Below are positions 8,461-16,235 of a DNA stretch of 64,000 nucleotides, in pieces. How positions within the stretch are numbered: position 1 is the first letter of the stretch; every line of letters starts with the position of its first letter. The notes under the pieces were generated by a model that had not been told where the DNA came from, did no database searches, and was given only the letters and a program-made list of their open reading frames with translations. The stretch comes from Rhizobacter sp. (lineage in GTDB: Bacteria; Pseudomonadota; Gammaproteobacteria; Burkholderiales; Burkholderiaceae_C). The position numbers and the translations under genes were made by a program. The DNA is taken from assembly GCA_035702065.1 (NCBI GenBank), contig DASSRA010000142.1, forward strand, positions 2,947 through 66,946. Reading direction: 5' to 3'.

Positions 8461-10257
8461 CTAAACCACCGTGTCCCACGGCGCCGACAGCCGCACCGCG
8501 CCGTTGATCACGCCCACCATCGAATAGGTCTGCGGGAAGTTGCCCCACAGCTCGCCCGTGCTCGTGTGCAGGTCTTCGGACAGCAGGCCCAGGTGGTTGC
8601 GGCTGGCCAGCAGCGCTTCGAAGATCTCGCGTGCCTGCGCGGTGCGGCCGATGCGCGCGAGCGCGTCGATGCGCCAGAACGAGCAGACGTTGAAGGCCGT
8701 CTCGGGCAGGCCGAAGTCGTCGGGGGCCTCGTAGCGGCGCATGAAGGGGCCGTCGCACAGCGTGTGCTCCAGGGCGTCGACGGTGCTCACGAAACGCGGG
8801 TCGCGCGGGTCGATGAAGCCCACCTCGGCCATCAGCAGCACGCTGGCGTCGAGGTCCTTGCCGCCGAAGCTCTCGACGAAGGCCTGGCGCGTGTCACTCC
8901 AGGCATGGGCGAGGATGGTGTCGCGGATGACGGTGGCGCGCCCACCCCAGAACGCGGCACGCTCGACCGCACCCAGCGTGCGCGCGATCTTGGCCAGGCG
9001 GTCGCAGGCGGCCCAGCACATGAGGGACGACGAGGTGTGGATGCGCGAACGCGTGCGCAGCTCCCACATGCCGGCGTCGGGCTGGTTGTGCAAGCTCCAG
9101 GCTTGCTCGCCCATGCGTTCGAGCAGGGTGAAGTCGTTCTCGTCGGCACGACGGAAGAGGCGGTGGTCGTGGAAGGCCTGGGCCGCGCCGAGCACGATGT
9201 TGCCGTACACGTCGTGCTGGAAGTGCTCGGCCGCCTGGTTGCCCACGCGCACCGGGCCCATGCCGCGGTAGCCGGCCAGGTGCGTGAGCATGCTCTCGGG
9301 CAGGTTCTTCTCGAGGCCGATGCCGTAGAGCGGTTGCACGTGGCCACCGCTCGCGCCGCGCATCACGTCGTTGAGCCAGCGCAGGTACTCCTCCATCGTG
9401 CCCACTTCGGAGAGGCTGTTGAGCGCACGCACGACGAAGAAGGCGTCGCGCAGCCAGCAGTAGCGGTAGTCCCAGTTGCGCTGGCTGTGTGGCGCTTCGG
9501 GGATGCTGGTGGTCATGGCCGCGATGATGGCGCCGGTGTCCTCGAATTGGCACAGCTTGAGCGTGATGGCGGCGCGGATCACCGCGTCCTGCCATTCGAG
9601 CGGCAAGGCGAGGCGGCGCGTCCAGGTGCGCCAGTAGAGCGAGGTCTGCTCCTCGAAGTCGCGCGCGGTCTCCTCGATGCCGCCGGCCAGCGTTTCGTCG
9701 GGACCGAACAGCAGGCTGATCGGCACCTGCAGCGCGAACCAGTTCTCGTGGCCGATGTAGGTGAGCGGTGCGTTGGTGGTGAGCCGCAGCGTCTGCTCGG
9801 GGCTGACGTAGCGGATGTGGTTGCTGCCATGCGTGAGGACCGGCGAGACAGTGCCCCAGCGGCTGAGCGGCTGCACGGCGATGCGGATGCGCGGGCGGCC
9901 CGCCAGCACGCGCACGCGGCGCACGATCTGCGCGGGGCGGAAGACGCGGTCCCGGTGAAAGAAGCGGGGCGCGAAGTCGGTGATCTCGACAGCGCTCCCC
10001 TCGCTGTCGAAGAGCCGGGTTCGCAGGATGGCCGTGCCGGCGTCGTAGGCCTGCTCGCTGCGCGCGAGCTTCTCCAGTTCGATGGAAAAACTGCCGGCAT
10101 CGGCAAGAGCTTCTGTCGAATTGAGCAGGGAATGAAAGATCGGGTCGCCATCGAAGCGCGGCCAGCAGCACCAGCCGATGCGTCCTTGCGTGTCGACGAG
10201 CGCGCTGACGGCGCAGTTGCCAATCACACCGAGGTCGAGAGAGGCGTGTCGCTTCAT
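8461..10257 (-). CDS. Glycoside hydrolase family 15 (trehalase/glucoamylase-like)
   Basis: LGVIGNCAVSALV, AAMTTSIPE...RNWDYRYCWLRDA, DAGMWELR, GLLSED, GNFPQTYSMVG. Start set at MKRHASL (10257). Confidence 0.93.
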   Translation of the reverse strand: MKRHASLDLGVIGNCAVSALVDTQGRIGWCCWPRFDGDPIFHSLLNSTEALADAGSFSIELEKLARSEQAYDAGTAILRTRLFDSEGSAVEITDFAPRFFHRDRVFRPAQIVRRVRVLAGRPRIRIAVQPLSRWGTVSPVLTHGSNHIRYVSPEQTLRLTTNAPLTYIGHENWFALQVPISLLFGPDETLAGGIEETARDFEEQTSLYWRTWTRRLALPLEWQDAVIRAAITLKLCQFEDTGAIIAAMTTSIPEAPHSQRNWDYRYCWLRDAFFVVRALNSLSEVGTMEEYLRWLNDVMRGASGGHVQPLYGIGLEKNLPESMLTHLAGYRGMGPVRVGNQAAEHFQHDVYGNIVLGAAQAFHDHRLFRRADENDFTLLERMGEQAWSLHNQPDAGMWELRTRSRIHTSSSLMCWAACDRLAKIARTLGAVERAAFWGGRATVIRDTILAHAWSDTRQAFVESFGGKDLDASVLLMAEVGFIDPRDPRFVSTVDALEHTLCDGPFMRRYEAPDDFGLPETAFNVCSFWRIDALARIGRTAQAREIFEALLASRNHLGLLSEDLHTSTGELWGNFPQTYSMVGVINGAVRLSAPWDTVV

Positions 10258-10335
10258 TGGAATGGGATTTGCACTCAAGGCGGGTGGTTCCTCGGTTCTT
10301 CTGAAAGGATTCCCCTGCTGCAAGATCTGGTCTCG

Positions 10336-12576
10336 TTGAAAACACTGCGCCTGCAACTGAGGTTTCTCGTGCCTCTGGTTCTGACCCTGACCGCAGCGGC
10401 GTACATCGCTCTCCCCTTGATGGACCGGCTGACGCTGCGCTGGTTTGCGCGTGATCTCAACATGCGCGGGGCGCTCGTCGCCAGTGCGCTGTCCGATTCC
10501 ATCGAGGACGCCTTGCAGCAAGGCCGGGACGGCCGCGTGCAATCCTTGCTCAACCGGGCTGTGCAAGACGAGCGCCTGGTGGCGGTGGGCCTGTGCGCGG
10601 AAGACGGCCGCCTGCTGCAGCACACCGGCAACTACCCCAAGACGCTCGACTGCCGCACCGCACAGCAGACCGCCACCTCGAAGGAGCCGTTGCTGCGCCT
10701 CTCGGGCGGGGCGCTGCAAGTGGGCCTGTACCCGGTGGACAACCAGGGCCGCCACATCGGTGACCTGATCCTGTTGCATGACCTGAGCTTCATCGACCGC
10801 CGCAGCCAGGACACGCGCCGCTACCTCATCCTGCTGATCGTGGCACTGGGCGTGACGATGGCACTCATCACCATGGTGGTGGCGCAGCTCAGCTGGCACG
10901 GCTGGGTGAAGGGCATGCGCTCGATCCTGCGAGGCGAGGGCCTGCTGCGGCCGATGGCCGAAGGCAGTGCGCCGCCCGAACTGGCCCCGCTGGCGGCCGA
11001 CGTGCGGGCGCGCCTGCGCGATCTGGAAGACCAGTACCGACGCGCGCTGGGCAGCGACGAGGAGTGGAATCCTGACCGACTCCGGTCGTTGTTGCAGACG
11101 CAATTACGCGGCGACCAGGTGATCGTCGTGTCGAACCGCGAGCCCTACATCCACATCAAGACACCCGAGGGCGTGGTGGTCGAGCAGCCGGCGAGCGGCC
11201 TGGTGACGGCCGTTGAGCCGGTGATGCGTGCCTGCTCCGGCACCTGGATCGCGCACGGCAGCGGCGACGCCGACCGCGGGTCGGTCGACGCACACGACCG
11301 CGTGAGAGTCCCCCCTGGCCACCCCGAGTACCTGCTGCGTCGCATCTGGCTCACGCCGGAAGAAGAGCAGGGCTACTACTACGGCTTCGCCAACGAAGGA
11401 CTGTGGCCGCTGTGCCACGTGGCGCACGTGCGGCCGGTGTTCCGCGAGTCCGACTGGCGCAAGTACCGCGAGGTCAACCAGCGCTTCGCCGACGCGGTGG
11501 TGGCCGAGGCCCGCGGCGAAGACCCCATCGTGCTGGTGCAGGACTACCACTTCGCCTTGCTGCCGGCCATGGTGCGCGCCAAGTTGCCGCGCGCCACCAT
11601 CATCACCTTCTGGCACATCCCCTGGCCCAACCCGGAGTCGTTCAGCATCTGCCCGTGGCGGCAGGAGCTGCTGCAGGGCATGCTGGGCAGCAACATCCTG
11701 GGCTTCCACACGCGCTTTCACTGCAAGAACTTCATCGAGACGGTGGACCGCAACCTCGAAGCGCGCATTGAGCACGAGCACTCCACCATCTCGTACCAGG
11801 CCGACGAGACGCTGATCGAGAGCTACCCGATCTCCATCGCCTGGCCGAGCCTGGAAGAGACCCTGAGCGTGCCGCCGGCTGCGGTGTGCCGGGCCCGGGT
11901 CTATGCGCGCATGGGCTTTCATCCCAAGCTCAAGCTGGCCATCGGCGTGGACCGCTTCGACTACACCAAGGGCATCTTGGAGCGGCTGCATGCGGTGGAG
12001 AACCTGCTCATCAAGCACCCCGAGTGCATCGGCGAGTTCGCCTTCGTGCAGGTGGCGGCGCCCACACGCTCGTCGCTGGAGGAGTACCGCGTGTTCCAGG
12101 AGCGCATTCTTCAGGTCACCCAGCGCATCAACGACCGCTTCAGCCGGCCGGGCTACCAGCCGGTGCACCTGCTGGCCAAGCACCACGGCCACCACGCGCT
12201 GACCGAGCTCTACCGGGCGGCCGACGTGTGTGCCGTGACCAGCCTGCACGACGGCATGAACCTGGTGTGCAAGGAGTTCGTGGCGGCCCGTGACGACGAA
12301 CAGGGCGTGCTGGTGCTGAGCCGCTTCGCCGGCGCGGCCCGCGAGCTGGGCGAGGCGCTGATCGTCAACCCATACCACGTGGAGGAAACCGCCGAAGCCC
12401 TGTACCGCGGCATCATCATGCCTCCGGCCGAGCAGCGCGAGCGCATGGCCAACATGCGCGCGACGGTGCGCGAGTTCAACGTCTTCCGCTGGGCCGGCCG
12501 CATGCTCGCCCACGCGGCGCGCCTGCGGCTGCGCAGCCGCGTCGAGGCGCGCGTGCTGCTCCACCAGGCTGAATAG
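10336..12576 (+). CDS. otsA: Trehalose-6-phosphate synthase (GT20) with an N-terminal two-TM receptor-like extension
   Basis: GT20 motifs [39 protein letters not shown] and IVNPY start about 260 aa into the ORF. The TTG 10336 start is inferred and could be slightly upstream. Confidence 0.9.
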
Positions 12577-13340
12577 ATGACGCCGCTCTTCTCACCTGCC
12601 GGAGACCAGGCGCTCGTCGACCTGCTGCAGCGGCGCCCGCTGCTGGCCTTCGATTTCGACGGCACGCTGGCCCCCATCGTCGACCGGCCCGAGCGTGCGC
12701 GCGTGCCGATGGCCTGGGCCGAGATGCTGATCGAGCTGGCGCGCCTGCTGCCCACCGCCATCGTCACCGGGCGCTCGGTGACGGACGTGACGGCGAGACT
12801 TCCGTTCTCGCCGCGCTACGTGCTGGGCAACCACGGCGCCGAAGACCCGAAGGGCGCGATGCGCCCCGGCTCGGTGGCGCGGCTGGCGCCGGTGCGCCAC
12901 GCGCTGGACCAGCTGGCCCCCCAGTGGCAGGCCCTGGGCATCGAGCTCGAGGACAAGCAGTTCTCGCTCGCCTTGCACTACCGGCGCGCGCCCGACCTGC
13001 TGGCCGCACGCGAGTGGATCGACGCGCTGCTGCGCAATGGCGACCAGGCCGGGCTGCACATCTTCCATGGCAAGTGCGTGCTGAACATCGCCCCGGACGA
13101 TGCGGCCGACAAGGCCGATGCGGTGATGTCGCTGGTGCGGCGCGCCGGCACCACGGCGGCCCTGTTCGCCGGCGACGACATCAACGACGAGCCGGTGTTC
13201 GAACGCGTGCCGCACGACTGGCTCACGCTCAAGGTCGGTGACGATGGCCACCCCAGCCGCGCACGCTATGTCATCGACACCCAGGAAGACGTCGGCAAGC
13301 TCCTGAAGCGGCTGCTGGAGCTTGCCGTGCTCGGCGCGGC

Positions 13341-13353
<13 letters not shown>
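12577..13353 (+). CDS. otsB: Trehalose-6-phosphate phosphatase (HAD)
   Basis: [22 protein letters not shown] in [12 protein letters not shown]. Starts immediately after the otsA stop. Confidence 0.93.

Positions 13354-16235
<2,882 letters not shown>

Follow-up and report, generated by a model that had tools for sequence, protein, structure and literature searches.

The gene considered here lies on the plus strand at positions 10336–12576 of a 64,000-nt window of a Rhizobacter sp. contig, to which all coordinates in this text refer. It is an open frame encoding 746 aa, beginning with TTG and closed by TAG, and its product is a membrane-bound form of OtsA. Directly downstream on the same strand lies otsB (12577–13353), encoding a trehalose-phosphatase (Pfam Trehalose_PPase, E 7e-23), whose ATG follows the otsA stop codon without a gap (TAGATG). 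Upstream, and divergent from otsA, is a minus-strand gene (8461–10257) for a 598 aa trehalase-like protein of the GH15 or glucoamylase family (Pfam Glyco_hydro_15, E 2.9e-46; TREH_N, E 5.9e-10), the two genes being separated by a divergent intergenic region of 78 bp (10258–10335). Neither a sigma-70 consensus promoter nor an intrinsic terminator was found in 10100–13500. When 80 related loci were compared, a set gathered with a narrow alignment and hence biased toward Burkholderiales, otsB was directly downstream in most of them and the GH15 gene was a conserved divergent neighbour in approximately 35. Judged by their families, OtsA and OtsB would be expected to make trehalose in this cell, with the GH15 enzyme as its probable means of degradation.

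The TTG at 10336 is supported as the start codon because homologs initiate with ATG at the equivalent codon, and the N-terminus (M and the ten residues that follow it) is conserved. The public gene call for the contig (P0002) begins 11 codons downstream at a GTG (10369) and gives a protein of 735 aa that still includes the first transmembrane segment (TM1). The same frame is open already from 8566, which would give 1336 aa; this longer frame was rejected as an artefact of high G+C content that overlaps the real minus-strand GH15 gene. Met codons are absent between residues 207 and 297. Residues 1–260 are conserved at the protein level in hundreds of genomes, down to 27–35% identity. In comparison with the closest relative dN/dS was 0.106 for these residues and likewise 0.106 for the catalytic domain, the estimate being taken from that pair only because dS was saturated or compositionally distorted in other pairs. 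A soil metatranscriptome contig of 239 nt is identical to 10606–10844, inside the sensor-coding part of the gene, and counts as weak evidence because carry-over of DNA is possible. The N-terminal module is genuinely protein-coding.

The catalytic portion of the protein (residues 261–746; 11116–12573, plus strand) comprises a GT20 (OtsA) domain and a C-terminal helix. An earlier note on this DNA had described about 260 residues ahead of an intact GT20 domain, and the match to Pfam Glyco_transf_20 does begin at residue 261, running to 726 (E 7.5e-120; 401.3 bits, the gathering score being 32.5) and covering model positions 2–470 of 473. OtsA structures in the PDB were matched down to E 1e-78, and the best matches, to families as well as to the PDB, were OtsA, well above GgpS. 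The cut-off of the NCBIfam OtsA equivalog TIGR02400 was missed (417.9 against 564.85 bits), as was that of PRK14501, the bifunctional TPS/TPP model (470.7 against 634). The domain represents a divergent subfamily, and because its score lies below the TIGR02400 cut-off we infer, from the remaining evidence, that its product is trehalose-6-phosphate (T6P). The residues which we take to be those for substrate binding and catalysis in E. coli OtsA (R9, G22, Y76, W85, D130, H154, R262, K267, R300, D361 and E369; 1GZ5/1UQU) are all invariant in an alignment with E. coli OtsA and two relatives, in which the numbering is that of the literature plus 1. By this comparison the active site is intact and the domain catalytically complete.

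The architecture that had been proposed ahead of this domain, namely TM1, a presumably periplasmic sensor-type domain, TM2 and a cytoplasmic linker leading into the intact GT20 domain, is real. A Kyte-Doolittle window of 19 residues passes two segments only, residues 10–29 and 163–185. TM1 (10363–10422, plus strand) follows a short and basic N-terminus (K2, R5, R9), forms part of a long helix (2–61) in the AlphaFold2 (AF2) model and has a mean conservation of 0.77 over 231 family sequences, while TM2 (10822–10890, plus strand) is the strongest hydrophobic peak and sits within a continuous AF2 helix (151–198). For neither segment does the positive-inside rule give a clear orientation. The cytoplasmic substrates of GT20, the presence of two TMs and an invariant Cys pair together suggest that the intervening residues 30–162 (10423–10821, plus strand) face the periplasm. 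The two cysteines to which the earlier note had drawn attention are C87 (10594–10596), at the end of strand beta1, and C106 (10651–10653), at the start of helix alpha3; they are Cys in 231/231 and 229/231 family members respectively, so that the pair is essentially invariant, and they may form a disulfide.

The periplasmic loop is predicted to fold as a PDC/single-Cache-like sensor domain. The AF2 model has pLDDT >90 over residues 40–110 and shows an alpha/beta PDC topology, in which a long N-terminal helix comes first, helices are interspersed in an antiparallel sheet at the centre, and the C-terminal helix continues into TM2. Foldseek matched this model with a probability of 1.0 to the ectodomains of WalK, CitA, Tlp3, PctA, LuxQ and DctB, and the top matches were exclusively extracytoplasmic sensor domains of kinases and chemoreceptors, the latter including the dCache type. 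The match to the full-length WalK model gave E 2.5e-6 and TMq 0.52, and single-domain targets (the WalK and CitA ectodomains) gave TMt values of 0.55–0.65. The likeness to Cache/PDC receptors named in the earlier note holds at the level of the fold but not at that of family models, as Pfam Cache models gave no match to 11 diverse family members at E up to 10; one of the 11 matched PAS_4 (E 0.17). With the N-terminal module as query, nothing in Pfam or NCBIfam rose above threshold, and a sequence-profile search of the PDB returned spurious helical matches only. Weak similarities were seen among NCBIfam models, collinear to CusS/CopS-type sensor kinases over residues 4–236 (E 9.9e-5) and to YfiN over residues 13–186 (E 0.0027). 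The alignment to CusS by hhalign was again collinear (E 0.006), and since its probability was merely 6% this homology is kept as a lead and not as a finding. No other protein with the same periplasmic domain was present among the best 150 representatives; matches that had no GT20 domain were rejected as frameshifted or truncated metagenomic calls. A search of 61 related genomes (E up to 0.1) showed no paralogs of the domain, on signalling proteins or elsewhere.

Conservation over the 231 sequences is unevenly spread through this module. W36, D40, R44, D78-E79-R80, P101, D149 and R156 are invariant or near-invariant, as are W190 and W244 of the linker. The most highly conserved stretches are those that flank the membrane on either side of TM2, residues 150–162 (0.81) and 186–198 (0.83). 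The least conserved segment is 97–118 (0.50), which carries insertions and is presumably the part that usually lines the ligand pocket of PDC domains; its poor conservation makes it less likely that a single small-molecule ligand is shared by the whole family.

The cytoplasmic linker (residues 186–260; 10891–11115, plus strand) was delimited by AF2 secondary structure and conservation. It consists of a juxtamembrane helix to approximately residue 198 (with W187 and W190), a variable Gly/Pro connector (199–213), an amphipathic helix (214–238), the invariant W244 and a short helix (246–256). Model confidence is low in the linker, with low pLDDT in the connector. This region had been described as an amphipathic, HAMP-like linker; the amphipathic helix is indeed present in the AF2 model, but the linker is not recognisable as a HAMP. 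Pfam HAMP (PF00672) matched neither the protein nor 11 relatives, and a genome-wide Pfam scan recovered 44 HAMPs, none of them in otsA. When 29 HAMPs of this genome were made into an HMM, it gave the linkers approximately 0 bits, and hhalign of the linker against HAMP gave a probability of 0.4% over 14 columns, the positive control (the CusS HAMP) giving 96% and E 4.7e-9. A HAMP has two helices joined by a connector of roughly 14 residues right behind TM2; the order after TM2 in the model is helix-disordered-helix, with a short first helix and a connector that varies in length among relatives. The second half of the linker (residues ~214–262) is also found in an OtsA of Mesorhizobium that has one TM and is without the first HAMP helix. 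No HAMP, DHp or PAS transmitter was detected anywhere in the protein.

The N-terminal 260 aa of the query are found in more than 1342 proteins, nearly all of them approximately 744 aa long and with a GT20 domain. The family is a common one, recorded in at least 186 species genomes and in 933 clusters at 50% identity. In the related loci the module was fused to GT20 in 80 cases out of 80. Many Burkholderiales of fresh water and soil carry it, its distribution elsewhere in the Pseudomonadota is scattered, and culturable carriers include species of Rubrivivax, Ramlibacter, Aquabacterium, Curvibacter, Ideonella and Piscinibacter. A genome search showed the otsA described here to be the sole GT20 gene of its genome; the host is a betaproteobacterium. 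Among the sampled genomes of this genus none has more than one GT20 protein, and that copy is either the membrane-bound type or a canonical soluble OtsA; in one possible exception (G403) a canonical OtsA was accompanied by a PDC-domain fragment on a separate contig. The membrane-bound type replaces canonical OtsA in the genomes that carry it. Its GT20 clade lies far from E. coli-type OtsA, the separating branches exceeding 2 substitutions per site. Database entries for the family read 'trehalose-6-phosphate synthase' only, and since current annotation in this way hides the N-terminal domain, that domain deserves a family model of its own. The earlier note knew of no characterised example; none was found in the literature searched, where no OtsA is described as membrane-bound or fused to a sensor, most subscription journals being outside its coverage.

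The synthesis of trehalose by OtsA and OtsB is a textbook stress response. In bacteria its control is regarded as chiefly transcriptional (RpoS, osmotic induction), with OtsA viewed as a soluble enzyme. The reading that we favour, with a probability of roughly 55%, is that otsA encodes an inner-membrane T6P synthase built as a receptor-enzyme, by which trehalose synthesis is controlled post-translationally. The periplasmic domain would perceive a cue at the level of the envelope; candidates are a small ligand, an osmotic or membrane change, and the redox state of the Cys pair. A conformational change would then pass through TM2 and the helices 186–198 and 214–256, as in sensor kinases of the same fold, and GT20 domains within a dimer or tetramer would be rearranged or altered in activity, and trehalose synthesis would in this way be adjusted after translation. 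That a periplasmic signal, of whatever identity and sign, regulates the enzyme is plausible. A more specific form of this proposal, put forward tentatively, is that of a one-component receptor-enzyme in which the PDC domain directly gates compatible-solute synthesis through the Cys87/Cys106 redox pair or through a membrane-proximal charged cluster, the one-TM enzymes of Mesorhizobium being natural sensor-less derivatives. Several observations count against the receptor-enzyme reading: the existence of that single-TM OtsA without a sensor, the poor conservation of the segment 97–118, a linker that has no HAMP and is modelled with low confidence, the ambiguity of the positive-inside rule for both TMs, and the score below the TIGR02400 cut-off.

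It is possible, if rather unlikely, that the N-terminal module serves purely as anchor or scaffold, holding the T6P synthase at the inner membrane and transmitting no signal. The Cys pair would then be a purely structural disulfide, the module might fix the oligomeric state or dock a periplasmic or membrane partner, and trehalose would be controlled by transcription or substrate supply as with canonical OtsA. Anchoring alone can suffice in the same clade, as the Mesorhizobium relatives demonstrate with their one TM and no periplasmic domain. The failure to detect HAMP or another known transmitter, the poor conservation of the putative pocket region and the lack, in the 61 related genomes, of any signalling protein with a paralogous domain all point in the same direction. 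Against this, a folded domain of 130 aa under the same purifying selection as GT20 is more than mere anchoring needs, and it retains invariant charged residues (D40, R44, D78-E79-R80, D149, R156) beside the Cys pair. Its fold is one used almost exclusively in extracytoplasmic sensing, and the peak of conservation within the module falls on the juxtamembrane helices flanking TM2, as is expected of a transmission path.

That the enzyme is no housekeeping T6P synthase but a GT20 that uses another acceptor or donor at the membrane is improbable. It would in that case make, for instance, a different glucosyl-phosphate osmolyte, or the precursor of a trehalose-containing envelope glycolipid, and the membrane module would place it beside a lipid acceptor or an exporter. 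The membrane location, the scores below both NCBIfam cut-offs (OtsA and bifunctional TPS/TPP) and the great distance of the clade from E. coli-type OtsA would all fit such a role. They are set against the conservation of every E. coli OtsA residue for binding UDP-glucose and the phosphate of glucose-6-phosphate, the ranking of OtsA well above GgpS among the best matches, a gene that abuts that of a trehalose-phosphatase and has a trehalase-like GH15 gene nearby, and the alternation with canonical OtsA within the genus, where no sampled genome has two GT20 genes. That the first 260 codons are outside the functional protein and translation starts near the GT20 domain, a possibility named in the earlier note, is scarcely credible: high-G+C DNA does give long spurious frames here, as the one open from 8566 illustrates, and internal initiation is possible from the sequence alone (dual transcription starts have been suggested for AlgC; 10.1101/589796), but this is contradicted by the conservation and dN/dS of residues 1–260, by their invariant residues and confidently modelled domain, by a start position shared with relatives that use ATG and by the stretch devoid of Met codons.

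If OtsA is a receptor-enzyme, an envelope, osmotic or redox signal would act on trehalose post-translationally, without a kinase, a second messenger or transcription, and control of catalysis by the periplasmic domain would couple the synthesis of an osmoprotectant quickly and directly to the condition of the envelope. A large conserved family in any case substitutes a receptor-shaped membrane enzyme for soluble OtsA, and natural controls exist in the canonical OtsA of sister species and in the one-TM Mesorhizobium enzymes.

Canonical soluble OtsA (E. coli, PDB 1GZ5/1UQU; Mycobacterium thermoresistibile, PDB 5JIJ) resembles the membrane-bound enzyme in its full-length GT-B GT20 domain, in the residues taken to bind UDP-glucose and glucose-6-phosphate, and in its pairing with otsB. 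It differs from the present protein, which has 260 additional N-terminal residues with two TMs and a periplasmic domain, and the E. coli type forms a separate and deeply divergent clade that is also present in sister species of the same genus. The Mesorhizobium OtsA (~597 aa), annotated as trehalose-6-phosphate synthase only, belongs to the same GT20 clade (support 100/100), is membrane anchored and shares the cytoplasmic helices before the catalytic domain, including a W-x-P-x-x-L helix, but it crosses the membrane with one TM only and is devoid of the periplasmic domain.

Among sensors, kinases of the WalK, CitA/DcuS, CusS and PhoQ type have the same fold in the same position between TM1 and TM2. 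The weak collinear similarity to CusS/CopS-type kinases extends through TM2 and beyond, and conserved membrane-flanking helices are likewise a feature of PDC/sCache histidine kinases. The output of the latter is a kinase, in contrast to the glycosyltransferase found here, and membrane-bound OtsA is without their HAMP, DHp and PAS transmitter or a Pfam Cache/PAS match, while it possesses an invariant Cys pair. A pair of conserved periplasmic cysteines between two TMs, joined to a cytoplasmic enzyme, is found in the CSS-domain c-di-GMP phosphodiesterases PdeC and PdeB of E. coli. In PdeC the enzyme is less active once DsbA/DsbB have made the disulfide, and dimerisation takes place through TM2 (Herbst et al. 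2018, PMC5897775). The output domain is a different one, no sequence relationship was detected and the Pfam CSS-motif matched neither the protein nor 11 relatives; the shared pair is a common feature and not evidence of homology. By analogy PdeC offers a worked example of how C87 and C106 could act, were OtsA under redox control.

The closest published analogue of membrane-bound OtsA is AlgC, a phosphomannomutase/phosphoglucomutase of which a membrane-bound form with TM-dCache-TM at its N-terminus has been described (Qian, Fei & Galperin, bioRxiv 10.1101/589796). In that work the fused enzyme was found as the sole copy in a genome or alternating with a stand-alone enzyme, had been missed by annotation, and was predicted to be regulated (10.1101/589796). 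AlgC is an alpha-D-phosphohexomutase unrelated to GT20, and its hosts are Gammaproteobacteria. The sensor of AlgC, which sequence models do detect, is a double Cache of ~200 aa; that of OtsA is a single PDC domain which Pfam misses. The two nevertheless share a Cache-superfamily sensor held between two TMs and joined to a cytoplasmic sugar-phosphate enzyme, the occurrence as a sole copy or in alternation with a stand-alone form, and a history of being overlooked in annotation. If the receptor-enzyme reading is correct, OtsA would join AlgC as only the second enzyme of sugar metabolism described as being coupled directly to a Cache-type sensor.

The product of otsA (window 10336-12576, plus strand) emerges from sequence comparison and structural modelling as a membrane-integrated, catalytically complete OtsA with a predicted extracytoplasmic sensor-fold domain. 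The gene's reading frame spans 746 codons and closes with TAG. Residues 261-726 match the Pfam GT20 model (E 7.5e-120), and a Kyte-Doolittle scan of the 746-aa protein finds exactly two hydrophobic segments of membrane length, residues 10-29 (TM1) and 163-185 (TM2). The roughly 130 residues separating these segments contain Cys87 and Cys106, and the linker stretch that the earlier note quotes follows TM2. Frame, scan and Pfam search therefore confirm the ORF, membrane segments, two-cysteine loop, post-TM2 stretch and GT20 domain of that description.

A public gene call on the same contig starts at GTG 10369 (735 aa), with GAGG 6 nt upstream of this codon; no clear Shine-Dalgarno sequence was seen upstream of TTG 10336. 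Relatives have ATG at the codon matching TTG 10336 and hold the N-terminus (Met and the ten residues after it) in common. We think on this comparison that TTG 10336 rather than GTG 10369 is the true start. The otsA frame is also open for another 590 codons upstream, antisense to a GH15 gene, and 8566-12576 (plus strand) appears in the ORF listing with 1336 aa. The longer frame from 8566 is a high-G+C artefact overlying a real minus-strand gene and could mislead ORF-based annotation. In comparison with the closest relative, dN/dS is 0.106 both for residues 1-260 (the N-module) and for the GT20 domain. In a soil metatranscriptome one contig of 239 nt is 100% identical to window 10606-10844, in the part coding for the sensor domain, which is weak evidence; other pieces from this run are 90-95% identical to the window and come from relatives. 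A translation start near the GT20 domain, named in the earlier note as refuting its reading, is contradicted by homolog starts, N-module homologs, dN/dS and invariant residues and is effectively excluded, and the N-module is taken to be translated.

Trehalose-6-phosphate synthases account for all the top-scoring matches in NCBIfam and the PDB. Alignment with E. coli OtsA showed conservation of all eleven residues that we take, from the 1GZ5/1UQU work, to bind UDP-glucose and glucose-6-phosphate (R9, G22, Y76, W85, D130, H154, R262, K267, R300, D361 and E369). The protein scores below the NCBIfam OtsA equivalog cut-off, so that its identity as a working trehalose-6-phosphate synthase is inferred rather than certain. 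The genome has no second GT20. The otsA stop abuts the ATG of otsB (trehalose-phosphatase; 12577-13353, plus strand), and 78 bp upstream, in divergent orientation, lies a GH15 gene (8461-10257, minus strand) whose N-terminal domain is trehalase-like (TREH_N); the three genes form a locus for synthesis and, probably, degradation of trehalose. Convergent with otsB is gcvP (glycine cleavage P-protein, 964 aa; 13341-16235, minus strand), the 3' end of which extends 13 nt into the stop region of otsB. In every one of 80 related loci the N-module is fused to GT20, with otsB downstream in most and GH15 as divergent neighbour in about 35; a Ramlibacter group has neither neighbour.

Neither Pfam models nor PDB sequence profiles matched the N-module. 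AlphaFold2, run on 28 family members, modelled the periplasmic part with confidence (pLDDT >90 over residues 40-110): a long helix leaves TM1 and is followed by another helix, two strands, a third helix, three further strands and a last helix that leads into TM2. Foldseek against the PDB returned extracytoplasmic sensor domains only: the model of full-length WalK (E 2.5e-6; TMq 0.52, 268 columns), the ectodomains of WalK and CitA (TMt 0.55-0.65), the dCache domains of chemoreceptors (Tlp3, PctA, CtaA, Mlp37), LuxQ and DctB. Because of this topology and these matches the loop is assigned, at the level of the predicted fold, to the PDC/single-Cache-like domains. Weak collinear similarities to TIGR01386 (CusS/CopS-type kinases; residues 4-236, E 9.9e-5) and YfiN (E 0.0027), with a collinear hhalign match to E. 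coli CusS at just 6% probability, may be regarded as leads only. The periplasmic domain was found on no other protein, either as a second copy in 61 related genomes or among the best 150 representatives.

With residues 1-260 as query more than 1342 proteins were recovered, almost all of about 744 aa with GT20, forming 933 clusters at 50% identity and including full-length members down to 27-35% identity. In an alignment of 231 members C87 is Cys in all and C106 in 229; D40, R44 and R156 are invariant, and W36, D149, W190, P218 and W244 are each kept in 229 or 230. Conservation peaks in the helices flanking TM2 (0.81 for residues 150-162, 0.83 for 186-198). It peaks as well in a set of charged residues (D40, R44, D78-E79-R80, D149, R155, R156), which from the topology of the fold probably sit at the base of the domain, next to the membrane. 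Conservation is lowest in region 97-118, where the pocket usually lies and where insertions occur. Indels cluster after reference residues 110, 120 and 137-139 (the alpha3 region and beta4-beta5 hairpin), and six loci from Burkholderiaceae and Vitreoscilla MAGs have an N-module 30-50 aa longer.

The linker had been described as HAMP-like. A Pfam scan of the genome found 44 HAMP domains and none in otsA, an HMM made from 29 of these gave about 0 bits on the linkers of 39 family members, and hhalign aligned the linker and HAMP profiles over 14 columns at 0.4% probability, against 96% (E 4.7e-9) for a positive control, the CusS HAMP. The HAMP reading is therefore rejected, and the only remaining resemblance is a predicted helix-connector-helix pattern. 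Since the second linker helix and the W244 helix also precede GT20 in one-TM enzymes of Mesorhizobium, which have no first helix, the conserved cytoplasmic helices are a trait of this GT20 clade and not a borrowed HAMP.

A pattern search kept narrow on purpose located the N-module in 186 species genomes, with cultured carriers in Ramlibacter, Aquabacterium, Rubrivivax, Ideonella, Piscinibacter and Curvibacter; in an even phylum sample the full module occurred in 8/401 genomes from five families, and a distant member lies in a Bdellovibrionales/Alphaproteobacteria MAG. No sampled genome of the window's own genus has more than one GT20: some have the membrane type, some a soluble, canonical OtsA like that of E. 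coli (about 465 aa), and others lack GT20. This alternation within the genus argues that the two types share the same job, and it looks like one displacing the other. One genome (G403) has the canonical OtsA and, on another contig, a 192-aa open-frame PDC-domain fragment that could be a remnant, contig break or contamination; in another (G409) the GT20 is of a third type. On a tree of GT20 domains, the membrane-anchored enzymes, PDC-bearing and Mesorhizobium one-TM together, form one clade (100/100) distant from the canonical type. The Mesorhizobium enzymes (for example L093:1351-3138) are of about 597 aa, with one N-terminal TM helix and no periplasmic domain, and are annotated simply as trehalose-6-phosphate synthase. 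Their nesting in an unresolved set of PDC-bearing lineages is consistent with, but not proof of, loss of TM1 and the sensor domain.

These one-TM enzymes show that anchoring by itself is viable, and the main rival explanation is that the N-module is an anchor or scaffold only. This leaves unexplained why a folded domain should be constrained as strongly as the active site. In the most likely mechanism the periplasmic domain would perceive a periplasmic or membrane-level cue and relay it to the GT20 domains, by way of TM2 and then the conserved helices on the cytoplasmic side, altering their activity or assembly. The earlier interpretation is partly supported: its PDC sensor fold and receptor-like topology stand, its HAMP does not, and post-translational control of OtsA by the N-module is a plausible hypothesis. 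The cue could be redox, through the Cys87/Cys106 pair, with PdeC as a worked precedent; it could be a change in the membrane or in ions felt at the charged base, in the manner of PhoQ; or it could be a small ligand. Because the pocket region is the least conserved, with insertions, lineage-specific ligands, or a cue other than a ligand, seem likelier than a single universal ligand.

The earlier note knew of no characterised example, and literature searches, which reached few subscription journals, likewise turned up no trehalose-6-phosphate synthase described as membrane-bound or fused to a sensor. In design, the nearest published counterpart is a membrane-bound AlgC phosphomannomutase with a TM-dCache-TM module, a form overlooked by annotation and whose regulation is still just predicted (10.1101/589796). 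The membrane OtsA architecture has been overlooked by annotation in the same way. We rate the fusion of a sensor domain to an enzyme as a known design; what is new is the GT20 output and a sensor-domain family covered by no model.
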